Assembly: GCA_000739515.1 (NCBI GenBank)
Contig: DF820455.1
Span: forward strand, 1,258,203-1,304,711
DNA: 46,509 bases
DNA from: Candidatus Moduliflexus flocculans
Lineage (GTDB): Bacteria; Moduliflexota; Moduliflexia; Moduliflexales; Moduliflexaceae
Direction of reading: 5' to 3'
Part shown: positions 9,356 through 42,030 of the stretch, one piece after another
How positions within the stretch are numbered: position 1 is the stretch's first letter
Layout: each line of letters starts with the position of its first letter
Notes under the pieces: generated by a model
Database searches by the model: none
What the model was told of the DNA's origin: nothing
What the model saw: the letters and a program-made list of their open reading frames with translations, nothing else
Position numbers and translations under genes: made by a program

Positions 9356-9763
9356 GACGTATCCCCCTCTTCTTAATGGCAAGGCTGTGAAGTTCTCGTT
9401 CCGCGTGGAACGAGGGGCAGCGCAACCCTCACAGGATTTAGAACGTCACAACTCTGCCTTCTTAATGGTCGAAGAATGTAATGCAGGTTTCTGTTGTGCT
9501 GTATGGCCGAATGCGAAGAAGTCAAGAGCGCAAAAAAGAAAAAGCCGCCCCGCTGTGAGATCAGAAAAAACGAGGGACGACAGGGTTGTTATCGCATTAT
9601 TCAATGACATTGGAGCCGGAGAACGCGTGTCAAATCTTGAGTTGACCGCAATATCAAAATTTCGCGCTCCTCATCGAATCTTTCGTCGTTTATATCAAGA
9701 GAGAAACCGCTTGACCGATTTATCAATTTAGTAAAATGCAAAAAATACATTCGCACAACAGAC

Positions 9764-9795
9764 CTCACAGGTCTCGAAGACCTGTGAGGTCTCCA
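9764..9795 (-). terminator. Family-1 hairpin copy (CCTCACAGGTCTCGAAGACCTGTGAGG). Its TTGTTG tail lies on the minus strand, so it is oriented as a minus-strand terminator.
   Basis: Perfect 10-bp stems. It lies in the divergent Rrf2/alr intergenic region, with no annotated minus-strand gene upstream of it. Confidence 0.5.
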
Positions 9796-9923
9796 CCACA
9801 AACATATTTTTTACATTTTACTTATGAATGAATTCTTTTGTAATTTTCGAGATATCCTGTTTGAAATCCAACTCGGAACGCGCAAAATTTTTCTTGACGG
9901 AAATTGCTGGCGGCACTTCAGCG

Positions 9924-11149: not shown

Positions 11150-12115
11150 ATGACATCTGAAAAATTTGAAACGCGGGGCAACGTGCATCATCAGGCGTAT
11201 CACATGCCGTTATCGTATGCGATCAGCGATACCTTTTCAGATGACCTGCGCGAGCCTCATCGCTATAAAATCGCGTTGATCACGTCAGGTTCGGGCATTC
11301 TCACGCTCGCGAACGAACGCCGCGCGTTTATCGCACCTTCCATCCTCTGTTTAAGCGAAACTTCCGCCATGCGCGTCGAAAAAGCGGCAAGCGTTGCGCT
11401 GCATCTCGTGTATTTTCACCCGACGGTCATCAACAGAACCTTGACATTTGCGAGCATGCGCACTGAGTATCGCGATATCTATTCGCCAGAAGCGATGGAT
11501 TACAGTTCGCTGCGTCCGTTTCGGCATCAGCATCATGCCGGATGGCTGCACAATTTAGGGTTGGTAGAAGCGCAACGCCTTCAGGAGATTTTCAACGCGC
11601 TTGCGCGACAATTGGAAACGCAGCCCGACGGCTACTGGCCGTGCCGGTCGAGAACCTATCTGATTGAACTGCTGTTCGCGCTTGCGCAACTCTATTTAAA
11701 CGAAACGCATGAGCAGGAAATCGGGCCGCAATGCGTGAAATTCGAATTGCCGACGCCGCCGGAGCAGCCAGAGATTTATCCGGTGTTAGTGCATTTGCTG
11801 AATAATTATCATAAGCGCATCACGATTCCAGAATTGAGCAAGACGTTTCACACGAACAGAAATTCCCTGAGCCAGAAGTTCAAAAAAGCCACAGGAACGA
11901 CAGTGGTGGATTATTTAAGCAAAGTGAGAGTGCGAGTGGCGTGTCAGTTGTTAAAAGATTCAAGCCTGCCGATTGTCGAGATCTCCGAGCGCACGGGCTA
12001 TGTAGATGTCACGCATTTTGGCCGGACATTCCGAAAATACACCAGCCTTTCGCCATCTGAATATCGCGACCGTTATCAAGGTGAGGTTTCGTTAAGGCCG
12101 CATCAGGAAAACTAA
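11150..12115 (+). CDS. AraC/XylS-family transcriptional regulator: N-terminal sensor domain plus C-terminal double HTH.
   Basis: C-terminal region ITIPELSKTFHTNRNSLSQKFKKATGTTVVDYLSKVRVRVACQLL...ISERTGYVDVTHFGRTFRKYTSLSPSEYR matches the AraC HTH signature. Confidence 0.8.
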   Translation: MTSEKFETRGNVHHQAYHMPLSYAISDTFSDDLREPHRYKIALITSGSGILTLANERRAFIAPSILCLSETSAMRVEKAASVALHLVYFHPTVINRTLTFASMRTEYRDIYSPEAMDYSSLRPFRHQHHAGWLHNLGLVEAQRLQEIFNALARQLETQPDGYWPCRSRTYLIELLFALAQLYLNETHEQEIGPQCVKFELPTPPEQPEIYPVLVHLLNNYHKRITIPELSKTFHTNRNSLSQKFKKATGTTVVDYLSKVRVRVACQLLKDSSLPIVEISERTGYVDVTHFGRTFRKYTSLSPSEYRDRYQGEVSLRPHQEN

Positions 12116-12204
12116 ATATAACGTCCCGCGAACATCCTCGTTGCTCGCTGACAAGACAAGCGAACGAGGATATGTTCGCGGGACGAAAAAGGAGTACCAG
12201 GACT

Positions 12205-13533
12205 ATGAAATTTCCATCTGATTTTTTGTGGGGCGTTGCGACGTCATCGTATCAAATCGAAGGCGCAGTTGCTGAAGACGGGCGCGGTGAGTCTATCTGG
12301 GATCGCTTTGCCGCGCAGCCGGGCAAAATCAAAGACGGCAGCAGCGGCGCGGTGGCCTGCGATCATTATCATCGCTATCGCGAAGATGTCGGGCTGATGC
12401 GGGAATTAGGCGTCAACGCCTATCGGTTCAGCATCGCCTGGCCGCGTGTCCTGCCGAAAGGCTTCGGACGCGTCAATGACGCCGGTCTCGATTTTTATGA
12501 CAAATTAGTGGATGAATTGCTGAAATCGAAGATTACTCCGGCAGTCACGCTCTATCACTGGGATTTGCCGCAAGCGCTGCAAGATCGTGGCGGCTGGGGG
12601 CATCGTGACACGGCGCAAGCATTCGCGGAATTCGCGCAGGCAGTAGCACGGCGGCTGGGGGACCGCATCCCGATCTGGTTTACGCATAACGAAATGTGGT
12701 GCACGGCGTTTTTAGGCCATGCCAACGATATGTACGCGCCCGGTTACTCAAACTTCGCCTTAGCGCTGCAAGCGGCGCATCATGTGCTGGTATCGCATGG
12801 GCTGGCTGTGCCGGTGCTGCGCGAAGAATGCGCGAAGACCGCAAACATCGGAATTGCGCCGAATATTGCCTATCCGCTTCCAGCCACAGACGCGCTGTCC
12901 GATGCAGAAGCGGCGCGGCGTTTTGATGGCTTTTTCAATCGCTGGTTTCTTGATCCGCTCGCCGGAAAAGGTTATCCGCAAGATATGTGGGAATGTTATA
13001 AAGGATATACGCCGCATATCGAAGACGGCGATTTTCAGATTATCGCCGCGCCGCTCGATTTTCTCGGCATCAATTACTATAATCCGGATCGGATTGCCGA
13101 TGATCCGGCTGGCGTCCTGCCGCCATATACGCGCCAGATTCCTGATCCGACGCTGAAACGGACGGCGGATCGCGAGATTTACGCGCCGGGCTTATATGAG
13201 TCGCTGACGCGGCTTCACCGGGATTACGGCTTCCCGGCGATGTATATCACGGAAAACGGCGCGGCGTATCCTGATGCCGTTGCGGAAGACGGCGGCGTGC
13301 ATGACGCCGAACGGATCGCGTTTTTACAAGCGCATTTCGAGCAGGCCGCGCGAGCGATTGACGCGGGCGTGCCGTTAAAAGGCTATTTTGTCTGGTCGTT
13401 AATGGATAACTTCGAATGGTCGCAAGGCTACACCCTGCGTTATGGCCTGACGTATGTGGATTTTGCGACGCAGCAGCGCATTTTCAAAGACAGCGCCCGC
13501 TGGTATCGAGAGTTTATCGAGACGCAAAGATGA
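12205..13533 (+). CDS. bglA: GH1 beta-glucosidase.
   Basis: Motifs FLWGVATSSYQIEGA, TLYHWDLP and YITENGAA (catalytic nucleophile). An AGGAG RBS lies 8 nt upstream of ATG 12205. Confidence 0.9.
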   Translation: MKFPSDFLWGVATSSYQIEGAVAEDGRGESIWDRFAAQPGKIKDGSSGAVACDHYHRYREDVGLMRELGVNAYRFSIAWPRVLPKGFGRVNDAGLDFYDKLVDELLKSKITPAVTLYHWDLPQALQDRGGWGHRDTAQAFAEFAQAVARRLGDRIPIWFTHNEMWCTAFLGHANDMYAPGYSNFALALQAAHHVLVSHGLAVPVLREECAKTANIGIAPNIAYPLPATDALSDAEAARRFDGFFNRWFLDPLAGKGYPQDMWECYKGYTPHIEDGDFQIIAAPLDFLGINYYNPDRIADDPAGVLPPYTRQIPDPTLKRTADREIYAPGLYESLTRLHRDYGFPAMYITENGAAYPDAVAEDGGVHDAERIAFLQAHFEQAARAIDAGVPLKGYFVWSLMDNFEWSQGYTLRYGLTYVDFATQQRIFKDSARWYREFIETQR

Positions 13534-13535
13534 TA

Positions 13536-13620
13536 GAACGCGGATGACGCGGATTGCGGATTCTCGCAAAAATTATTTTTATCATCGAAAATCCGAACAA
13601 TCCGCGTCATCCGCGTTCTC
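13536..13620. terminator. Family-4 long hairpin, GAACGCGGATGACGCGGATTG ... CAATCCGCGTCATCCGCGTTC. It sits between two convergent genes and probably acts as a bidirectional terminator.
   Basis: A 21-bp perfect inverted repeat with an AT-rich roughly 40-nt interior. A related copy lies at 38516-38605. Confidence 0.6.
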
Positions 13621-13632
13621 TTTCCAAAACGC

Positions 13633-14922: not shown

Positions 14923-15672
14923 ATGTCAGGTCATTCCAAGTGGCATTCCATTCGCCACAAAAAGGGGAAAATTGACGCGCAGCGCGGCAAGATTTTTACG
15001 CGCTTAATTAAAGAATTAACAGTTGCCGCCAGAATGGGCGGCGGCGATCCGAACGGCAATGCGCGGCTGCGCACCGCGATTGCGGGCGCAAAGGCGGCCA
15101 ATATGCCGGCGGATAACATTGATCGCGCCATCAAAAAAGGCACGGGCGAACTCGAAGGCGTCTCGTATGAAGAAATCACGTATGAAGGCTATGGCCCGGC
15201 GGGCGTCGCGGTAATGATTGACGTGATGACGGACAACAAAAACCGCACCGTGGCGGATATTCGGCATATTATCAGCAAAAACGGCGGCAACCTCGGCGCG
15301 GCCAACTGCGTAGGCTGGATGTTCCATCGCAAAGGCGTGATTCAAGTGAGCGCCGAAGACGCCAACGAAGACGAGTTATTAGAAATCGCGCTCGATGCTG
15401 GCGCGGAAGATATGACGAACGAAGGAGATACGTTCCAGATTTTGACCGCAGTCGAAAATTTCGAAGATGTGCGCAGCACGCTTGAACAAAAGGGGATTCC
15501 GATGCTGAGCGCGGAACTGAGCCGCTTGCCGGAAAATACCGTCAAAATCACCGACGCGAAAGAAGCGGCCAAAGTGATGAAACTGATGGATGCGCTGGAA
15601 AATAGCGACGACGTGCAGAACGTGTACGCGAATTTTGACATTCCTGAAGAGATTCTGGAAAGCCTGGAATAA
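14923..15672 (+). CDS. yebC: YebC/PmpR-family transcriptional regulator.
   Basis: MSGHSKWHSIRHKKGKIDAQRGKIFTRLIKE is a hallmark of the family. An AAGGGAGG RBS lies 10 nt upstream. Confidence 0.9.
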   Translation: MSGHSKWHSIRHKKGKIDAQRGKIFTRLIKELTVAARMGGGDPNGNARLRTAIAGAKAANMPADNIDRAIKKGTGELEGVSYEEITYEGYGPAGVAVMIDVMTDNKNRTVADIRHIISKNGGNLGAANCVGWMFHRKGVIQVSAEDANEDELLEIALDAGAEDMTNEGDTFQILTAVENFEDVRSTLEQKGIPMLSAELSRLPENTVKITDAKEAAKVMKLMDALENSDDVQNVYANFDIPEEILESLE

Positions 15673-15678
15673 CGGCGC

Positions 15679-16176
15679 ATGAGAACGCTCGGCATTGATC
15701 CCGGCTCGCTGAAAAGCGGCTATGGCGTGGTGGATGAGCAGCAAGGGCAACTGACGATGGTGGAGTACGGCGTGATTCGGACGAAATCCGACGCGCCGCT
15801 CGCTGAGCGCCTCTTGACGATCAGTCAGCGCGTGCGTGAATTGATTGACCGGTACGCGCCTGACGACGTCGCCGTTGAAGAAGTGTTTATGGCGACGAAC
15901 GCACAATCCTCCCTGAAATTAGGACAGGCCAGAGGCGCAATTCTCCTGACTGCCGCGCAAGCCGGGATCAGCGTGGCGGAATATACGCCGCTGCAAGTCA
16001 AGCAATCGGTCGTGGGGTATGGCCGGGCCGAAAAAACGCAGGTGCAGCAGATGGTCAAAGTCTTGTTGCGCCTGACCGAACTGCCGTCGCCGGACGATGC
16101 GGCGGACGCGCTCGCCATCGCGATCTGCCACCATCATTCGGTGAAAATGAATCGTCAGCTTGCGCAGGGACGATAG
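15679..16176 (+). CDS. ruvC: Holliday-junction resolvase RuvC.
   Basis: N-terminal MRTLGIDPGSLKSGYGVV with catalytic Asp. C-terminal DAADALAIAICH. Confidence 0.9.
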   Translation: MRTLGIDPGSLKSGYGVVDEQQGQLTMVEYGVIRTKSDAPLAERLLTISQRVRELIDRYAPDDVAVEEVFMATNAQSSLKLGQARGAILLTAAQAGISVAEYTPLQVKQSVVGYGRAEKTQVQQMVKVLLRLTELPSPDDAADALAIAICHHHSVKMNRQLAQGR

Positions 16177-16222
16177 CCCGAAAAGAAAATTAAACACGAC
16201 ATATCTTTGAAAAGGGTTGACT

Positions 16223-16816
16223 ATGATCGCTCGACTGACTGGCAAACTCGCCCTGAAAAACCCTGATGAAATCCTGCTTGATGTCGGTGGTGTCGGTTAT
16301 CAGGTGTTCATCCCGCTCTCCACGTTTTACGAACTCCCGGAACGGGGCGAACTCATCACCCTCCAGATTTACACCGCCATGCGGGAGAACGCCATCGAAC
16401 TGTTCGGCTTTCTCACGCTCAAAGAAAAAGAAATCTTCAAGCTCCTCTTAAATGTTTCAAAAATCGGTCCAAAGTTGTCATTAAATATCTTATCGGGCAT
16501 CGCCTGCGACGACCTGACCGCCGCGCTCGCCAGCGGCGACATTTTGAAGTTGCGCGGCATTCCAGGCATCGGGCAGAAAACCGCTGAGCGGATGATTCTC
16601 GAATTAAAAGACAAAGTGCCGAAAGCGCAGGCCGCCGCCGGACAGGACGTCGCGCTGCCGGGCGAACTCTTCGACGATGCGCTCTCCGCGCTGCTGAATC
16701 TCGGCTATAAACGCCCGAACGCCGAACGCGCCGTCAAACGTGCCATCACCGAAGCCGGGCGGGATACGCATCTTGAGGAAATTATCCGGCTGTCGTTGAA
16801 ATATATTGCGTTGTAA
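16223..16816 (+). CDS. ruvA: Holliday-junction helicase subunit RuvA.
   Basis: MIARLTGKL...ILLDVGGVGYQV... matches the RuvA N-terminus. HhH motifs IGPKLSLNILSG and IPGIGQKTAERMILEL. Confidence 0.9.
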   Translation: MIARLTGKLALKNPDEILLDVGGVGYQVFIPLSTFYELPERGELITLQIYTAMRENAIELFGFLTLKEKEIFKLLLNVSKIGPKLSLNILSGIACDDLTAALASGDILKLRGIPGIGQKTAERMILELKDKVPKAQAAAGQDVALPGELFDDALSALLNLGYKRPNAERAVKRAITEAGRDTHLEEIIRLSLKYIAL

Positions 16817-16823
16817 CATTGAA

Positions 16824-16975
16824 ACCACGAAACACACAAAATACACGAAAAAAATCGAACACTGATAACCTGATTGGACTGATTGACACTGATTTTTTAT
16901 CAGGATTGTTCAGCATGATCAGTCCAATCAGTGTTCTATTGATTTTTTCGTGTCGTTCGTGTGTTTCGTGGTGAA
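16824..16975. repeat. Roughly 150-bp nested palindrome between ruvA and ruvB. Outer 45-bp imperfect inverted repeat, inner perfect 14-bp inverted repeat (CTGATTGGACTGAT/ATCAGTCCAATCAG), central CTGATTTTTTATCAG. CTGAT recurs four times at 8-10 bp spacing.
   Basis: Read directly from the sequence. It occupies the entire ruvA-ruvB intergenic gap. Confidence 0.6.
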
Positions 16976-16986
16976 TTATTCACAGA

Positions 16987-18057
16987 ATGGATACCGAAAA
17001 ACGTTTAGTCAGCCCGGATCACCGTGCCGAAGATTTCGATGTCGAGCGGTCGCTGCGCCCGCAGCATATTGACGAATACATCGGCCAGCAAAAGCTGAAA
17101 GAGACGCTGTCCATCTTTATTCAGGCCGCCAAAGAGCGCGGCGAGGCGCTGGATCATGCGCTGTTTTATGGCCCGCCGGGGCTTGGCAAAACGACGCTTG
17201 CGCATATCATCGCCAAAGAGATGAACGTCAACATCAAAACCACGTCCGGGCCGGTCATCGAACACGCGGGCGAATTGTCGGGCATTCTGACCAATCTCGC
17301 CGAGAAAGACGTGCTGTTTATTGACGAAATTCATCGCCTGAACCGCGTTGTCGAAGAAAATTTGTATCCGGCAATGGAAGATTTTCAGTTGGATCTGATT
17401 GTCGGGCAGGGGCCGAACGCTCGCTCGATCAAGCTGAATATTCCGCATTTCACGCTGGTCGGCGCGACGACCCGCGTCGGGCTGATGACCTCGCCGATGC
17501 GCGACCGCTTCGGCATCATTCATCGCCTCGAATTTTATACGCCGCAGGAATTGCAGCAGATTGTCACGCGCTCGGCGCATATTCTGAAAATCGAGATCGA
17601 GCCGGAAGGCGCGAACGAAATCGCGCGACGCTCGCGCGGCACGCCGCGCATCGCGAATCGCTTGCTGCGGCGCATCCGCGACATCGCGCAAGTCAAGGGC
17701 AAGAACGTCATCACGCTGGAAATCGCGAAGCTCGGATTGAAAATGTTGGAAGTTGATGAAATCGGGCTTGACTTTATGGATCGAAATCTGTTATTGACAA
17801 TCATTGAAAAGTTCGATGGCGGCCCGGTCGGGTTGGATACGCTCGCTGCCGCAATCAGCGAGGAAAAAGACACGATTGAAGATGTGTACGAGCCGTTTCT
17901 GATTCAATGCGGATTCGTGGAACGGACGCCGCGCGGCAGAAAAGCGACGAAATTGGCATACCAGCATTTCGGGCAAACGCTGCCGCCGCAAAAACAGCCG
18001 GGAAGTAGTCAGCCGTTATTGTGGACAGGGGAAGATCAACCATTAATCATTACCTAA
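16987..18057 (+). CDS. ruvB: Holliday-junction branch-migration ATPase RuvB.
   Basis: Walker [16 protein letters not shown]. Conserved LEQYIGQ-like N-terminus. Length 356 aa. Confidence 0.92.
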
Positions 18058-18069
18058 GGAGGGACACGT

Positions 18070-19347
18070 ATGCGAAATACGCTTGCCATGATTCTTGCAG
18101 GAGGCCAGGGAAGCCGCCTCACGATTTTTTCAAGCTCTCGCGCCAAGCCCGCCGTGCCGTTTGGCGGCATTTACCGGATCATTGATTTTGCGTTGAGCAA
18201 TGTCATGCACGCAAAAATCAACGTGGTCGGCGTACTGACGCAGTATCGGCCCAGTTCGCTCATGGATCATCTGAAAAAAGGCGATCCGTGGGATTTCGTC
18301 GGGCGCAACCGCGAAATTAAAGTCCTGCCGCCGTACACCGGAACACATAGCTCGGACTGGTACAAAGGAACAGCAGACGCGATTTATCAAAATCTGTGGT
18401 ACATCAAGCGCTACAAGCCGAAAAACGTGTTGATTCTCGGCGGCGACCATATTTATTATATGGATTATTGGAAAATGGTGGCGTATCATGAAGAAAAAGG
18501 CGCTGATTTGACGATTGCCACGATGAACGTGCCATACGAAGAAGCCAGCCGGTTCGGGATTATGACGGTGAACGAAGAAAATCGGATCATCCGATTTCAT
18601 GAAAAGCCGAAAGAACCGGAAAGCACGCTGGCCTCAATGGGCATTTACGTGTTCAATGCCGATATTTTGACCCGCAAATTGATGGCGGACGCCAAAGACC
18701 CTGGAAGCCAGCACGATTTCGGCAGCAATATCATTCCTGAAATGATTCAGGAAAATCGCGTGTTTAATTACGTGTTCGAAGGCTATTGGAGAGATGTCGG
18801 CACGGTGCAATCGTTCCTTGACGCCAATATGGATTTGTTGAACCCCGCCTCCGGCCTTGATCTCGGCAAATGGGATGTGCATACGAACCTGGAAGAGCGG
18901 AACGTCGCGGATCGTCCGCCCGCCAAAATCATGTCGAACGCCAGCGTTTCGAACTCCATGCTGTCGCGTGGCTGCGTGATTGACGGCGTCGTGGAGCAGA
19001 GCATTCTGTCGCCTGGCGTGATCATCGAAAAAGGCGCGGTCGTGAAAAACGCGATCATCATGCACGATTGCGTGATTCGCGAAAACGCCGTGCTTGAAAA
19101 TGTCGTGACCGACAAAGATGTGATCTTCGGCAAAGGTTCTCAGGTCGGCGTCAGCGGCGAGAATGTCCCCAATCGCATCTACCCCAAATACCTCAACACA
19201 GGCATCAGCATTTTCGGTAAAGGCGCACGCGTGCCGGACAATGTCAGCATCGGACGTAACTGCGTCATCTTTCCGCTTGCGAACGAAACCCATTACACCG
19301 GCACAACGGTGGAAAGCGGCGATAGCGTCGGCGCGGAAGACGCGTAA
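18070..19347 (+). CDS. glgC: Glucose-1-phosphate adenylyltransferase.
   Basis: MILAGGQGSRL...PAVPFGG.YRIIDFALSN is the canonical GlgC N-terminus. An AAGGAGGG RBS is present. Confidence 0.9.
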   Translation: MRNTLAMILAGGQGSRLTIFSSSRAKPAVPFGGIYRIIDFALSNVMHAKINVVGVLTQYRPSSLMDHLKKGDPWDFVGRNREIKVLPPYTGTHSSDWYKGTADAIYQNLWYIKRYKPKNVLILGGDHIYYMDYWKMVAYHEEKGADLTIATMNVPYEEASRFGIMTVNEENRIIRFHEKPKEPESTLASMGIYVFNADILTRKLMADAKDPGSQHDFGSNIIPEMIQENRVFNYVFEGYWRDVGTVQSFLDANMDLLNPASGLDLGKWDVHTNLEERNVADRPPAKIMSNASVSNSMLSRGCVIDGVVEQSILSPGVIIEKGAVVKNAIIMHDCVIRENAVLENVVTDKDVIFGKGSQVGVSGENVPNRIYPKYLNTGISIFGKGARVPDNVSIGRNCVIFPLANETHYTGTTVESGDSVGAEDA

Positions 19348-29464: not shown

Positions 29465-29759
29465 ACGCTCCTCCTTCGTTTTAATGGTTTTTGGATAAGA
29501 CCTCAGAGGCTGTTCTAACAGTCTGGAGTGCCAAAGCTTGCTTTGGCTGACAACGCAAGCAATGAACTGTCATAATGCTCGCATCTATGTATAGAAGGGA
29601 AAGTAAGGTTGTTCGATGAGAAAGTCAATAAAAAAATAGGAAAGACAGAAATGTCTTGTCACAATAATAATCTACGGCAGATTAACTGATGGGTTGAACA
29701 TGCCGCGCTGGAATTACGCTTGACAGAATGCTCGGCGTTCTGATAAGGTTGCGGGGAAA

Positions 29760-29796
29760 CTGTCAGACACCTTAAAGGTGTCTGACAGTTTTTTGG
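29760..29796 (+). terminator. Family-2 hairpin CTGTCAGACACCT-taa-AGGTGTCTGACAG plus TTTTTTGG. A strong intrinsic-terminator-like structure 50 bp upstream of cbiD.
   Basis: 13-bp perfect stem followed by a T6 run on the plus strand. It lies in the cbiD leader. Confidence 0.6.
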
Positions 29797-29844
29797 TTCA
29801 TAATATGTTGTTTCATGATAATGTTGGAAAAGGTTTGAACATGT

Positions 29845-33840: not shown

Positions 33841-33891
33841 CAGGAGTGCAAAAGCTTGCTTTTGCGGCAAAAGCAAGCTTTTGCACTCCTG
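33841..33891. repeat. Family-5 palindrome in extended/tandem form (CAGGAGTGCAAAAGCTTGCTTTTGC-GGC-AAAAGCAAGCTTTTGCACTCCTG), between cbiF and cbiG.
   Basis: A 51-bp near-perfect palindrome read directly. Confidence 0.6.
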
Positions 33892-35449: not shown

Positions 35450-35695
35450 TCAACCTCAGATTTCACAGAGAAAAAAACCTGCGGCCTCTGCGAAATCTCT
35501 GGTTTCATCGTTCTGAAGAATCGCCGATCATCGCGATTGTGTTTCTTGACTTCTTTCGAAAAAAATATTTGACTTTCTTTTGAAGGCTTCATGGAGTGCA
35601 TAGTCAGAAGCATCATGATTCTCATGATGCGCTGATTGAACATTCCGATGGAAATGGGCTGTCACGCAGTGTTCGAACTGCCTGGCCGCTTAAAC

Positions 35696-38509
35696 ATGCT
35701 TATGAAAAAGTCGTTCATGATTCTCTGGTTGCTGATTGGAACGTTATTCCTCGCCGGTTGTCCCAATCATTATCAAAAGGGAATGACCTATATCGAACAG
35801 GGACAAACTGATTTAGCCATCCAAGAACTCCTCACCGCTCTGCAAAAAGAGCCGAATAACCCTGATATTTATTATCAATTAGGGCAGCTTTATATTCGAC
35901 AGGAAGCGTATCGCAAGGCGCAGGAGATGTTTCAGGCGGTTGTTGATCGTTTTCCGACGTATGCGAATCGCGACGGCGCGTTATATTATCTCGGACTGTG
36001 CCATTTTCAATTCCGCGAATACCCGCTCGCGATGAACGCTTTGGCTGAGGTTGGAATGAAATTTCCAGCCAGTCAGTTCGGCGAGTCCGCGCAGTTCTAT
36101 TATGCGGAAAGCGCCTGGTTTGCTGAGGATGTCGGCAAGGCGACCGGTTCTTATCAAGAACTGTTGCGTCGCTTCCCGACCGGATCATTCTATCCGGTCG
36201 GCTTGTTCCGGCTTGGAGAGTGCCAGTTGACGCTTGGCAATCATGCCGAGGCAGCGGACGCATTCAAAAAATTTCTGGCTGCCGCCGACACCTGGAATGC
36301 CAATGCGATTCAGGGGCGATACGACCTGAATCAATTGATCGAACGCGCCTATTATGCGTTAGGCAAGAGTTTTACTGCCTTGAAAGAACCGGCCAAAGCC
36401 ATCGGTTATTATCGCGATCTGCTGAGTAAATTTCCCAAAAGCGGGTATGCGCCAGAAGTCTTTTATCGCCTCGGCATTGCCTATGAAAGCGTGGGAAATC
36501 AGCAGCAAGCCGTTGATACCTTCCGCACGCTCTTAAAAGATTTTTCCGCCTCGGAATTTGCGGATGACGCTTTATTCCGCCAGGGAAGCGTACAGTTCAG
36601 CGGTCAACAGTATGACGCGGCGCTGGCCTCACTTACGGAATTAATCACCACGTTTCCGAATAGTCCAAACGTGCCGCGAGCGCAGATTATGATCGGCAAT
36701 GTCTTGATGCTGAAAAATGATCCGCTGAAGGCTGCTGACGCCTACGAACAGGCGCTCTCCTATGCGCCGCAGCCGATTGAAATCGGCAGCATTAAAATTG
36801 AGCGCGCGGAAGCCGTTGCGGCGTTACGGCGTCAGATCAGGCTTTCAGCGGCGATTGCGCATTATCAGGCTGATGATTTCGCGAAAGCCGCAGCATTGCT
36901 GGCAGAAATTCCCGCTGAAGAACGCACGACTGAAGAGCATTTTTGGAATGGGGAAATCGCATTTCGCCTGCAAGATTATGCGCAGGCTCGCAGCGATTTT
37001 AATCGCGTGCTGACAAGCCAGGATGCCAAAGATTTGGCGCCGCAGGCGCATTTAGGCATCTTGAAAATTTTATACGCCCAGGAACAATGGCAGGAGGTTT
37101 TGCAGCGTGCGCAAGAGATTCCGCGCGAGCGCCTGACGCCAGAAGTGTTTTTGCTTGCGGGGGATGCGGCGCTGAATCTCAAAGATTTTCCCTCTGCAAT
37201 CACATGGTATGAAGACATTCGCAATCGCTATCCACAACATCCGATGGCGCAAGACATCCTCTATTACGCGGGAATCGCCGCGTACAAATTAGAGAAATTC
37301 GACCAGGCTCGAAAATATTTCAACGATTTGATCCAGCAATATCCTGGACATCGTTTTGCTGGCGAAGCGCAGTTTTATCTCGGCTGGACATTTTTCCGCG
37401 ACGATAATTATGAACAGGCGATTCGCGCGTTTCAACTGCTGATCGAGCGTTTTCCTCAAAGCGAGTTTGTCGTGCAGGCCAGATTAAAAATCGCGGACTG
37501 TTATTTTAACATGGGGCGATATGCCGAATCGCTGCAAGAATATCAACGGATCATGAATGATTACCAGAATAAGCCGGAAATTGTCGGCGAAGCGCAGTAC
37601 GGCATGGCGTTGGTGTATAAAGTGACGGGAGAATACAACCAATATCTCGCTGCCACGCGAGAATTTATCGAGAAAAACCCCAACAGCCCGCTCAGCATCG
37701 CCGCGCAGTTTCAAATTGGCGAACAATATTTTCAGCAAGATGATTACCTGAACGCTATCAATGCCTACCAATGGATTGTGGAGCGTTTTCCCGATAGCGA
37801 GTACGCGGATAACGCGCTCTATCGAATCGGGCAATCCTATGCGCAGCAGAATGATGTGACGGCGGCGTTAGAATATTTTCACAGCCTGATGAATCGCTAC
37901 CCGAAAAGCGAATATCGCCCGACCACACAATATGAGATTGCGGCGCTGTATTTTCACGCAAAAGATTTTGCGAATGCTGCGGCTGAATACCAGACATTCT
38001 TGCAAAGCTTTCCAGCTGATACCAACGTGCCGCAAGCGATGGCTGATTATGGAACATGTCTGATCGCGCTGAACAAGATGCCGGAAGCGTCGAAAGTCTT
38101 CGAGCAATTGCTTCAGCGTTTCCCCACAAGCCCGCAAGCCGAAGGCGCAGGCGTTGTCGTTGGAGAAGCGTATGCCAGCCAGCAACGCTGCGAAGATGCG
38201 GAAGAGGCGTTCGGCGCGGTGTTAAGCGGCTCAGATCAAGGGAAAGCGGCGAAAGCGCAATTGACGATTGCCTCTTGTTATCAGGCGCAGGGCAATGCCG
38301 AAAAAGCGATTGCCGAATATTTTAAAGTGATTTATGTGCATTCCAGCCAGAAAGCCGAAGTGGATCAGGCCACATTCGCGTCGGCAGGCATTTATGAACA
38401 GCAGGGCAAAATAGACGAAGCCCGTAACTTGTATAAAAAACTCGCGGAGACATCTTCCAATCAGGAATTTGTGCAACAAGCGAGACAGAAATTGCAGGAA
38501 TTGCAGTAA
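35696..38509 (+). CDS. Large TPR-repeat lipoprotein, about 935 aa, with tandem TPR/YbgF-like repeats throughout.
   Basis: Lipobox LFLAGC. Many repeats of the pattern A...Y.LG.......Y..A...F...P.S.....A. Confidence 0.75.
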   Translation: MLMKKSFMILWLLIGTLFLAGCPNHYQKGMTYIEQGQTDLAIQELLTALQKEPNNPDIYYQLGQLYIRQEAYRKAQEMFQAVVDRFPTYANRDGALYYLGLCHFQFREYPLAMNALAEVGMKFPASQFGESAQFYYAESAWFAEDVGKATGSYQELLRRFPTGSFYPVGLFRLGECQLTLGNHAEAADAFKKFLAAADTWNANAIQGRYDLNQLIERAYYALGKSFTALKEPAKAIGYYRDLLSKFPKSGYAPEVFYRLGIAYESVGNQQQAVDTFRTLLKDFSASEFADDALFRQGSVQFSGQQYDAALASLTELITTFPNSPNVPRAQIMIGNVLMLKNDPLKAADAYEQALSYAPQPIEIGSIKIERAEAVAALRRQIRLSAAIAHYQADDFAKAAALLAEIPAEERTTEEHFWNGEIAFRLQDYAQARSDFNRVLTSQDAKDLAPQAHLGILKILYAQEQWQEVLQRAQEIPRERLTPEVFLLAGDAALNLKDFPSAITWYEDIRNRYPQHPMAQDILYYAGIAAYKLEKFDQARKYFNDLIQQYPGHRFAGEAQFYLGWTFFRDDNYEQAIRAFQLLIERFPQSEFVVQARLKIADCYFNMGRYAESLQEYQRIMNDYQNKPEIVGEAQYGMALVYKVTGEYNQYLAATREFIEKNPNSPLSIAAQFQIGEQYFQQDDYLNAINAYQWIVERFPDSEYADNALYRIGQSYAQQNDVTAALEYFHSLMNRYPKSEYRPTTQYEIAALYFHAKDFANAAAEYQTFLQSFPADTNVPQAMADYGTCLIALNKMPEASKVFEQLLQRFPTSPQAEGAGVVVGEAYASQQRCEDAEEAFGAVLSGSDQGKAAKAQLTIASCYQAQGNAEKAIAEYFKVIYVHSSQKAEVDQATFASAGIYEQQGKIDEARNLYKKLAETSSNQEFVQQARQKLQELQ

Positions 38510-38515
38510 CAACAG

Positions 38516-38605
38516 AGAGAACGCGGATGATGCGGAGCGCGCGGATTCTCGCGGAAACACAACGCCATCTGTGAAAATCCGCGCCATGCGCGTTATGCGC
38601 GTTCT
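38516..38605. terminator. Family-4 long hairpin (GAGAACGCGGATGATGCGGAGCGCGCGGATTCTC ... GAAAATCCGCGCCATGCGCGTTATGCGCGTTCTC).
   Basis: Imperfect inverted repeat of about 34 bp. It shares the GAGAACGCGGATGA/TCATCCGCGTTCTC termini with the copy at 13536. Confidence 0.55.
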
Positions 38606-38617
38606 CTCTCCGATTGT

Positions 38618-39202
38618 ATGAAACATCAATGGCATTTTTTATGGCTTTTTGTCGGCGCATGCTGCCTGTTCCCGGCTAATCGCGCCGTATCTCAGGACAC
38701 TCAGCCAGAAACGCTTCGATTGCCGGAAGTTGTGATCATCGGCATTGACGAATCGAAAATTCAGCGTCCGATTCCAAAAGTTGAATTGCTTCCCGCGTCG
38801 CTTCCGGTGATGACAACGTCGTGTTTGGATGAGGCGGATGCGTTGGCGTGGCAGGCGGCGTTGGTGGCGCTGCTTCAGCCGCGCAAGGCGGAAAAATTGT
38901 ATCAACAGGCGATTGCGCTTGATCCGGAAGATACAGACGCCTATGCGCGTTTGGGAAAAACATATCAGGCGTCCGGCATGTACGAACGCGCGAAAGATGC
39001 CTATCTCAAGGCCATCGAACGCGATAGCGGCGTCAGCGACATGCATTATGCGTTAGGCATTTTGTATGACAGCCATTTGCGTGAGCCGCAAAAAGCGCTT
39101 GAACAGTATCGTGTCTATCTTGAGCATGGCGGCGCGGATGCGCGGGTGAAATTCTGGATGCGGGAACTTGAGGAGAAATTGCAATCGCCGACAACTCCGT
39201 AG
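38618..39202 (+). CDS. Secreted TPR-repeat protein.
   Basis: Signal peptide. TPR-like repeats (YQQAIALDPEDTDAYARLGKTY..., YLKAIERDSGVSDMHYALGILY). Confidence 0.65.
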   Translation: MKHQWHFLWLFVGACCLFPANRAVSQDTQPETLRLPEVVIIGIDESKIQRPIPKVELLPASLPVMTTSCLDEADALAWQAALVALLQPRKAEKLYQQAIALDPEDTDAYARLGKTYQASGMYERAKDAYLKAIERDSGVSDMHYALGILYDSHLREPQKALEQYRVYLEHGGADARVKFWMRELEEKLQSPTTP

Positions 39203-41604: not shown

Positions 41605-41966
41605 GCGTTCTTTTCTGCTCAGGCCGTCTGCCGCGCGTGTCTATCACGCGCCGCGGCTGGCTGGCAGCATGTCATGTGTACCTATTTTCTCGGCGTCCCG
41701 ATTAAGTGTTCATCAAAAACAGACAATCATCTGTATAGTATAATTATGCAGGTTTTACTGGCGTGTCAAGAAAAAAGCGTCATTGGAGAATGTTGAAGAG
41801 GCAATTGCAGGAGATTGCTCGGCGCTGATTCGAGCAGATATTGATTTTCTTGAAAAAAATGATGCTCGTGCTGTTGGAACGGCGCGTTTCAGGAGCGTCA
41901 GGCGTCATTGCGTCCCCTTGCCTTCGAAGAGATCGCATATTAGGGAACTTTCAAAAGGCCGTAAAT

Positions 41967-42000
41967 CCGGTAGAGACGCGCGGGTGCGCGTCTCTACCGG
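41967..42000. terminator. Family-3 hairpin CCGGTAGAGACGCGC-GGGT-GCGCGTCTCTACCGG, about 30 bp downstream of the MCP stop on the minus strand.
   Basis: 15-bp perfect stem read directly. Confidence 0.6.
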
Positions 42001-42030
42001 CATGGGACAAGTTTCCTGCAATTGGCATGA

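Follow-up and report, generated by a model that had tools for sequence, protein, structure and literature searches.

A nested palindrome in the ruvA–ruvB spacer of Candidatus Moduliflexus flocculans is a composite of two dispersed repeat elements

Introduction

Why should a bacterium keep a nested palindrome of about 150 bp between two genes of its ruv operon? In the 46.5-kb stretch of the genome of Candidatus Moduliflexus flocculans (candidate phylum KSB3) analysed here (the window; 46,509 nt), the genes ruvA (16217–16816, + strand) and ruvB (16987–18057, + strand) are separated by a spacer of 170 bp, nearly all of which is taken up by this palindrome: its left outer arm starts 7 nt past the ruvA stop codon (TAA, 16814–16816) and its right outer arm ends 14 nt short of the ruvB ATG. 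The initial annotation of this locus, made from the sequence alone, had considered an array of operators for the SOS repressor LexA, an element that forms a cruciform, or a miniature inverted-repeat transposable element (MITE) inserted in the operon. We describe the anatomy of the palindrome, its presence in related ruv loci and the two repeat families to which its parts belong. Our preferred reading, to which we assign a probability of roughly 0.7, is that the structure consists of two nested short non-coding dispersed palindromic repeats, most likely gene-less satellites of elements associated with genes of the GxxExxY protein family.

Results

Two periodic elements nested in one spacer

The outer arms of the palindrome (16824–16853 and 16943–16972; 30 nt, 90% complementary in an inverted-repeat search) are followed inwards by a second pair (16848–16866 and 16927–16945; 19 nt, 84%), which is shifted relative to the first by an indel of 3–4 nt, and by a perfect inner pair of 14 nt, CTGATTGGACTGAT and ATCAGTCCAATCAG (16870–16883 and 16918–16931), around the centre CTGATTTTTTATCAG (16889–16903). 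The stem is A/T-rich (36% G+C), and the predicted RNA fold of 16815–16990 reaches −68.2 kcal/mol, compared with −36.5 ± 3.6 for 200 shuffles (z = −8.75). The nested palindrome, its perfect inner repeat, its centre and its ends are therefore as first described, and the structure lies far beyond chance expectation, but the predicted hairpin comprises 58 base pairs rather than the roughly 70 bp originally suggested.

What had been taken for a single outer repeat of 45 bp is really two things bridged by the indel: an arm of the outer element and, from a separate inner element, the terminal 10 bp. The inner element (16857–16936, 80 bp) is delimited by perfect 10-bp inverted termini, GAACACTGAT (16857–16866) and ATCAGTGTTC (16927–16936), has a T5 loop at 16894–16898 and is placed within the outer loop, between AAAAAAT(C) and (T)ATTG. 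The palindrome is thus a composite, with one short repeated element inserted within the loop of another. CTGAT starts at 16862, 16870, 16879 and 16889 (spacing of 8, 9 and 10 nt) and ATCAG at 16899, 16918 and 16927, with a degenerate TTCAG at 16909; the measured period is about 9 nt and not the helical turn of 10.5 bp that had been proposed. The outer arms are likewise periodic, a feature previously passed over, with three 9-nt units (ACCACGAAA, CACACAAAA and TACACGAAA) followed by an A run in the left arm (16824–16853) and TTTTTTCGTGTCGTTCGTGTGTTTCGTGGT in the right arm (16943–16972). Hereafter, a periodic-array palindrome is one whose arms consist of three to four direct repeats of an 8–12-nt unit with a conserved core, the two arms being inverted. 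The arrays at 16819–16974 also give spurious open reading frames (ORFs) of 51 and 40 aa.

No sigma-70-like promoter pattern was found inside the element and no intrinsic-terminator pattern in 16824–16972, where a T tract is absent. At gathering thresholds, Rfam gave no match in the whole window nor for these elements in 13 related loci, and a relaxed Rfam scan of 16700–17100 returned only generic microRNA-precursor hairpin models (33 bits compared with a cut-off of 211).

Stepwise gain of the elements at the ruv locus

Related ruv loci were fetched through their RuvB homologues. In the closest relatives (L001 and L002, 98% RuvB identity; L003 and L004, 92%), a simple hairpin of about 70 nt lies directly 5′ of ruvB, its arms corresponding to the outer arms of the window and its loop reading AAAAAA(A)TATT... 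in the alignment, with the CTGAT part absent. Absence from close relatives had been named at the outset as an observation that would tell against a dedicated ruv regulator, and of the relatives found, the two closest (RuvB 98% and 92%) indeed lack the inner CTGAT element in this spacer. As it is missing at that site in these relatives, we regard it as an insertion in the outer loop. In L001, a gene pair encoding a 71-aa protein and a PIN-domain (VapBC-like) protein (L001:2012–2621) separates ruvA from the outer hairpin, which shows that the hairpin stays with ruvB. The hairpin is absent from L005 (RuvB 92%), where a signal-peptidase gene occupies the ruvA–ruvB gap, from L007 (RuvB 83%; gap of 45 bp) and from Vecturithrix granuli (L008; gap of 9 bp). 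Because the gaps in L007 and L008 are only 45 and 9 bp, a tight ruvA–ruvB junction is taken as ancestral. On this comparison of sequences, the outer hairpin is an addition in the Moduliflexus lineage, and its loop subsequently received the inner 80 bp.

The ruv genes of the window lie on the + strand in the order yebC (14923–15672), ruvC (15679–16176), ruvA, spacer, ruvB and a glgC-like gene (18070–19347); Pfam domains RuvA_N, HHH_5 and RuvA_C were recognised on orthologues of RuvA, and the ruvB product is 100% identical to RuvB of Ca. Moduliflexus flocculans. In close relatives, the ruv operon is a hotspot for insertions, with AAA_21 and RloB genes between ruvC and ruvA in L003 (405–2317) and a 205-aa ORF and an S26 peptidase gene in L005 (880–1497 and 2146–2967). 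In V. granuli, the inner-type terminal motif ATCnGnGTTC occurs just 3′ of ruvB, in the ruvB–glgC spacer (L008:3573–3582), suggesting that the ruv neighbourhood gained such elements more than once.

Two families of dispersed periodic-array palindromes

A scan of one genome per species with the pattern GAACACTGAT-N45-75-ATCAGTGTTC, for which we calculate about 20 chance matches, recovered at least 106 inner-type loci in species genomes from several phyla. Among the matches listed, 57 have at least three units on both arms, and the hosts include Bacteroidota, Planctomycetota, Ignavibacteria, Chloroflexota and Moduliflexus/Vecturithrix; matches in Verrucomicrobiota are of looser build, with long non-repetitive loops. 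Copies are present in isolates, namely Larkinella knui, Larkinella sp. C7, Gelidibacter, Flavobacterium and Parabacteroides. The common plan is a terminal GAACACTGAT, two to three further nnnnC[T/G/A]GAT units, a short A/T loop and the mirror arm, with lengths peaking at 79 nt (four 9-nt units per arm; Bacteroidota, Ignavibacteria and Moduliflexus) and again at 67 nt (three 10-nt units per arm; Planctomycetota). Two pairs of loci (L041 and L051; L018 and L025) are similar over their full length, representing related copies within one genome. The window element carries the family termini, GAAC[A/G]C[T/G]GAT ... ATC[A/C]G[T/C]GTTC, at 16857–16866 and 16927–16936, and has at least three CnGAT units per arm, a 9–10-nt period and the short A/T loop (T5).

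A covariance model (R1) built from 26 inner-type copies, all from other organisms, scored 70.7 bits on 16853–16940 (E about 1e-12) and found three copies in the window. The second, of CGGAT subtype (13532–13622; 58 bits, E about 5e-10), lies between convergent genes and begins 1 nt past the TGA of the ORF at 12172–13533. The third, also of CGGAT subtype and more diverged (38515–38608; 30 bits, E about 4e-4), occupies the gap between same-strand ORFs at 35636–38509 and 38618–39202, the same arrangement as at ruvA–ruvB. A blastn search of the ruv element against plasmids gave no match, and a literature search with the terminal 10-mers of the inner element matched only miR-29 primer papers.

Inner-type copies are intergenic, with 28 between convergent, 52 between tandem and 11 between divergent genes among the matches listed, and most lie 0–25 nt past a stop codon, including inside operons. 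In 17 gap-free copies of 79 nt, the motif positions are nearly invariant and hence paired, while spacer positions pair in only 3–14 of the 17; the 'n' of CnGAT is mispaired in 9, and mismatches cluster there and in the spacers. G:T and A:C mismatches are about equally frequent (approximately 27 and 24 in our tally), with no strand bias. The conserved motif together with this balance of mismatches indicates that the repeated motif is kept on the DNA rather than as the helix of one RNA strand, and selection at the RNA level on the inner type finds no support in these copies. Four bases beyond the termini are also conserved and complementary, AAT[G/A] ... [C/T]ATT (57 copies).

The outer family was searched for with a degenerate 24-nt pattern based on four right arms (window, L001, L003 and L092), which occurred at no fewer than 120 metagenome loci and in both orientations. 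The typical form is AACCACGAAACACACGAAAnACACGAAA, a loop of 15–80 nt and TTTCGTGTnTTTCGTGTGTTTCGTGGTT; among the matches listed, of 110 right arms whose upstream sequence was long enough, 44 are preceded within 200 nt by a matching left arm. The left arm of the window, which is independent of the search pattern, fits the consensus of these 44 metagenome left arms at 30 of 34 positions. Some unpaired arrays face another unit (CACAGAT, CACAGAG or CACGGAA), and some enclose or flank a GxxExxY gene.

Nesting was observed beyond the ruv locus. Another Moduliflexus genome (L092) carries the same composite, about 90% identical by our count on the alignment, at a non-ruv locus between the end of a gene and the start of a 1074-aa ORF, and in an unrelated metagenome contig (L145) a CGGAT-type hairpin lies inside the loop of a CACGAAA-type hairpin. 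Copies at unrelated loci were the other observation that had been said to speak against a ruv regulator; related copies adjoin unrelated genes in more than 100 genomes, and the composite itself does so at L092. Members of the families are present in more than 200 independent assemblies, including the isolates Larkinella knui, Gelidibacter japonicus and Fuerstiella marisgermanici, as well as on a Bacteroides finegoldii plasmid record. As judged from these matches, neither element is specific to ruv, and both families are widespread in the intergenic DNA of many phyla. Dispersal and the gain at the ruv site are both supported by direct evidence.

The window contains other palindromes. The intergenic ones at 1241–1326 and 9730–9822 have a common core, ACCTCACAGGT...ACCTGTGAGGT, and probably represent another repeat family of the genome, the latter being itself nested inside 45-nt A/T-rich arms. 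A G/C-rich nested palindrome of 162 nt at 2488–2649 (predicted RNA fold −125 kcal/mol) holds CCCCTCTCCGAAGGAGAGGGG-type sub-hairpins and is unrelated in sequence to the ruv element. Further long intergenic hairpins occur at 33841–33891 (a perfect 25-bp palindrome), 29733–29811 (a stem followed by a T run, resembling a canonical terminator), 12111–12196 and 41941–42019.

GxxExxY nuclease genes beside the arrays

Some outer-type arms lie 440–460 bp apart around a single ORF of about 125 aa, giving the arrangement array, GxxExxY gene, inverted array, and in L227, L187, L181 and L124 the arrays abut the start and stop codons of the enclosed ORF. This ORF family corresponds to TIGR04256 ('GxxExxY protein') and PF13366 (PDDEXK_3), with E-values of about 1e-37 to 1e-43. 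CACGAAA arrays flank GxxExxY genes in these four loci and in L241, and inner-type hairpins directly adjoin GxxExxY genes in L056, L081, L093, L078, L083, L084 and L020; those of CTGAT type were found with GxxExxY genes in L056, L081, L093, L078 and L249.

The association was also evaluated in a sample blind to the arrays, comprising 17 GxxExxY genes picked by protein alone: six from IMG/VR, two bystanders in L193, three from a protein search (Fuerstiella marisgermanici, Desulfonatronovibrio hydrogenovorans and a JGI contig) and six from a plasmid collection, five of which come from named cultured isolates. The flank inverted-repeat score exceeded that of all 29 control genes in 11 of the 17 (median of 16 compared with 9; Mann–Whitney p = 4.8e-5), and flank periodicity at lags of 8–12 nt was also higher than in the controls (p = 6.8e-5). 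By eye, the remaining six have mostly short, one-sided or differently oriented arrays, with none in L240.

Each GxxExxY gene has its own unit (CGCGAAAAG, CGAATGAAA, CGGAATAAA, CGCAGATAA, CACGGAT, ACAGGATTA, CGCAAAGG or CACAGAGGA), and protein clades track unit type, with identities of 55–76% within the CACGAAA-like clade, 52–62% within CACTGAT and 51–55% within CACAGAG, compared with 30–45% between clades. The L249 member of the CACTGAT clade was found by its protein, and its CTGAT-type arrays were seen only afterwards.

The residues P69, D70, E80 and K82 (P-D...E-x-K) are invariant in 32 GxxExxY sequences. An AlphaFold2 model (predicted local distance difference test score of 93.7) has the core of the Cas4 nuclease as its closest solved fold (4ic1, TM score of 0.60), followed by lambda-exonuclease-like enzymes and Hjc resolvases, a resemblance to be read as general to the PD-(D/E)XK fold only; a sequence search of the PDB with the GxxExxY profile gave no match. 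The family is very large, with at least 8000 candidates in a family search. It has been described as of unknown function, with 'multiple transfers' noted (PMC3424549), and a functional study was not found in the literature on GxxExxY, PF13366 or TIGR04256. Scans of viral contigs with further GxxExxY queries gave no confirmed loci.

In the loci examined, including those of solitary outer-type arrays, no gene family but GxxExxY was seen repeatedly between or next to the arrays, although no scan dedicated to transposases or to REP-associated tyrosine transposases (RAYTs; REP, repetitive extragenic palindromic sequence) was made. The exception is one 23S_rRNA_IVP gene (PF05635, an Avd-like four-helix bundle) at L243:2099–2479 in D. 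hydrogenovorans. This gene lies among polysaccharide-synthesis genes and is flanked by inverted arrays of GCACTTTTAAC-like units with the architecture seen around GxxExxY genes; a GxxExxY gene and another PF05635 gene belong to the same operon.

Arrays and gene-bearing units cluster and are partly duplicated (L197, L013 and L081): L197:1258–1935 is a tandem partial duplication of a GxxExxY 5′ end with its array, L013:7290–7810 holds whole arrays and half arrays of several unit types in a row, and four hairpins surround one GxxExxY gene at L081:3270–4100. CACGAAA arrays have one open frame, which encodes T-K-H/Y repeats and runs on into the downstream GxxExxY ORF in several loci (L124, L181 and L187); although probably without meaning, it can mislead gene callers.

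Discussion

Origin of the composite and its possible partner

The history that we propose begins with an outer CACGAAA-type copy, which would have entered a short ruvA–ruvB spacer in the ancestor of the sampled Moduliflexus species. An inner CTGAT-type copy would later have reached the A/T loop of the outer copy, either by insertion at AAT^ATT or through replacement of the simple copy by a composite via recombination between repeats. Since the arrays flank GxxExxY genes and protein clades track the unit, we infer that the arrays may be recognition sites of GxxExxY proteins, and the gene-less hairpins would then be satellites, standing to the gene-bearing units much as REP sequences do to RAYTs, MITEs to insertion sequences, or intervening sequences of 23S rRNA without an ORF to those with one. 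That GxxExxY proteins recognise and spread the arrays is suggested by the association, the co-variation and the intact nuclease motif. The mobility of the elements and any effect on ruvB would likewise be deductions from these patterns.

A bolder version of this proposal, which we hold only tentatively and at rather less than even odds, is that the palindromes are satellites of a class of selfish elements present in many phyla, in which a 125-aa PD-(D/E)XK nuclease, GxxExxY, lies between inverted arrays that it recognises itself. Arrays with or without the gene would spread to the ends of genes, to operon spacers and into one another's loops, and the Avd-like '23S rRNA intervening sequence protein' of PF05635 may behave in parallel.

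Several observations weigh against dispersed satellites of GxxExxY-associated elements. No movement was observed, and the polymorphism at ruv could stem from recombination or gene conversion between copies. Many arrays are solitary, and 66 of the 110 outer-type arrays (about 60%) lack an ACCACRAA left arm within 200 nt, which is unexpected for a two-ended transposon. Flank arrays are weak or otherwise oriented in 6 of the 17 GxxExxY genes of the array-blind sample, and neither the 46.5-kb window nor some 46 kb of further Moduliflexus/Vecturithrix loci yielded a GxxExxY gene. A target-site duplication is not demonstrable, as the flanks covary with the palindrome. Finally, the outer hairpin has stayed beside ruvB in at least three lineages and may have a local role.

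The ruv element is probably tolerated rather than used. Given the absence of a T tract, transcription should read through from ruvA into ruvB, and the ruvAB mRNA would carry the 58-bp hairpin, a possible substrate of RNase III. By analogy with the intervening sequences of 23S rRNA, the transcript may be cut in the stem.

Alternative explanations

The alternative that survives best, although we consider it unlikely, is that the host has adopted the outer hairpin as an RNA element of ruvAB (a processing site, 5′ stabiliser or translational insulator) that the insert only lengthens. Its position directly 5′ of ruvB in three lineages, even where genes were inserted after ruvA (L001), fits this idea, and the changes in the L001 arms compensate for each other (CACGCG paired with CGCGTG), while three of the five arm differences in L003 are G-U compatible on the sense strand. 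RNase III is known to cut the long stems of 23S rRNA intervening sequences (PMC4990558). The same hairpin family nevertheless occurs at more than 100 unrelated loci in both orientations, L005, L007 and L008 do without it, the mismatches of the 17 inner-type copies have no strand bias, and processes at the DNA level alone can keep arms complementary.

Slightly less probable again is that the elements belong to a known class of mobile repeats, either REP sequences or REPINs moved by a RAYT (Y1 HUH) or a MITE of a DDE transposon (IS630/Tc1, with TA duplication). Like REPs, they are intergenic, palindromic and multi-copy, and lie just past stop codons. The REP tags are missing, however, with no GTAG or CTAC in 16700–17000 and a sole CGTC (16732) inside ruvA, outside the element. 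A link was considered with RAYT subclass 2.6 and class 3 HuH proteins, with their 'atypical secondary structures' and CnGA foot, and was rejected: among the REP sequences of these groups that are searchable in Quentin et al. 2018, those listed, such as CnGAGCCGCGACCGTAAGGGAGCGG, are unrelated and none matches. As to a transposon of IS630/Tc1 type, the bases next to the inner element are TA/TA in L092 and TC/TA in the window, with an empty site of AA-TA-TT. In other members, the flanks are inverted complements (G...C) and not direct repeats and covary across the family as part of the palindrome, so a TA target duplication is not demonstrable from the TA/TA flanks of L092. The recurrence of GxxExxY as array neighbour, within the scope given above, points away from both classes. 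The suggestion of a MITE in the operon holds in modified form: the insertion is MITE-like, but there are two nested elements and their probable partner is no classical transposase.

It is improbable that the arrays are sites of use to the host, such as binding sites of chromosomal proteins or barriers to transcription or supercoiling at gene ends, where GxxExxY genes merely land. A strong preference for gene 3′ ends, the many solitary arrays and a core motif that is conserved while spacers decay would all be expected of such sites. Their presence nonetheless differs between close relatives, the unit types are many, lineage-specific and co-vary with the GxxExxY clade, and there is no T tract for intrinsic termination.

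Very little speaks for an SOS (LexA) operator array or another dedicated operator controlling ruvB. The operon ruvAB is SOS-regulated in some bacteria, and the iterated CTGAT/ATCAG motifs resemble repeated binding sites. None of three LexA-box patterns (GAAC-N4-GTTC, CTGT-N8-ACAG and GTTC-N7-GTTC) occurs in 16700–17000, however, and the GAAC and GTTC of the element are about 70 bp apart, compared with 4 in a LexA box. The operator reading is unsupported because there is neither a LexA box nor a promoter pattern, terminator pattern or Rfam match; in addition, the CTGAT part is missing from the spacer of the closest relatives, and the same element adjoins unrelated genes in many phyla.

Although assemblers can produce false inverted duplications and the source genome is metagenome-derived, an assembly artefact is scarcely credible given the same composite in an independent assembly (L092) and members in more than 200 independent assemblies, including isolates and the B. 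finegoldii plasmid record.

Comparison with known systems

The nearest described analogues of the dispersed satellites proposed here are the intervening sequences of 23S rRNA, considered below, and REP sequences, bacterial interspersed mosaic elements and REPINs with their RAYTs ('REPtrons'), which are also multi-copy short intergenic palindromes, often past stop codons and inside operons, with a single small gene between inverted repeat copies, co-variation of repeat family and protein clade, clustering and nesting. The REP systems differ in that the ruv element has no GTAG or CGTC tag, in that ruv-type arms are arrays of 8–12-nt direct repeats whereas a REP is one imperfect stem, and in that the associated protein has a PD-(D/E)XK fold and is not a Y1 HUH enzyme.

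MITEs such as the Correia elements of Neisseria are similar in size (about 80–150 bp), have terminal inverted repeats, are co-transcribed with their neighbours and can nest. Correia elements use TA as their insertion site and give rise to RNA hairpins on which RNase III acts. Unlike MITEs, ruv-type elements have internal periodic sub-repeats and no demonstrable target duplication, and unlike Correia elements their families span several phyla and not one genus. Every longer unit found to share the ends of ruv-type elements carries a GxxExxY gene, and no parent insertion sequence with a transposase was found. Iteron arrays and multi-site transposon ends (Tn7, Mu) have several direct repeats per side, with the sides inverted; as in these, the motif positions of ruv-type elements are conserved while the spacers drift, a resemblance drawn from general knowledge. 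To our knowledge, the 9-nt period fits no known system.

The intervening sequences of 23S rRNA that encode S23p/23S_rRNA_IVP (PF05635) share a unit of about 430–460 bp, terminal inverted repeats, a long stem and one small ORF, and ORF-less versions exist. That of Coxiella burnetii, 428 nt long, encloses a small ORF with a terminal stem of 28 bp and is cleaved by RNase III (PMC4990558). The PF05635 gene of L243 lies outside rRNA and is flanked by inverted periodic arrays in the same way as GxxExxY genes. The ruv element differs in lying outside rRNA, in lacking an ORF and in having array types seen with GxxExxY rather than PF05635; cutting of the ruv stem by RNase III would be by analogy.

Implications

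Neither family is in Rfam, and a description of them was not found in the searchable literature; the genome paper of Ca. M. flocculans, in which the genome was binned from a metagenome, makes no mention of repeats of this type (PMC4312070). For ruvAB, the implication is deflationary, as the palindrome would be passenger DNA and not an SOS control region, and annotators should mask it. For the wider biology, two families of the same build (inverted arrays of 9–10-nt units) are present in hundreds of genomes and metagenomes from several phyla and are statistically tied to genes of GxxExxY, an orphan nuclease family. GxxExxY genes, free-standing '23S intervening sequence protein' genes and many of the unexplained intergenic hairpins of Bacteroidota, Planctomycetota and related groups may have a common explanation. 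Should the bolder proposal made above hold, a very large family of orphan proteins would gain a role and a connection to the origin of rRNA intervening sequences, which has long lacked an explanation.

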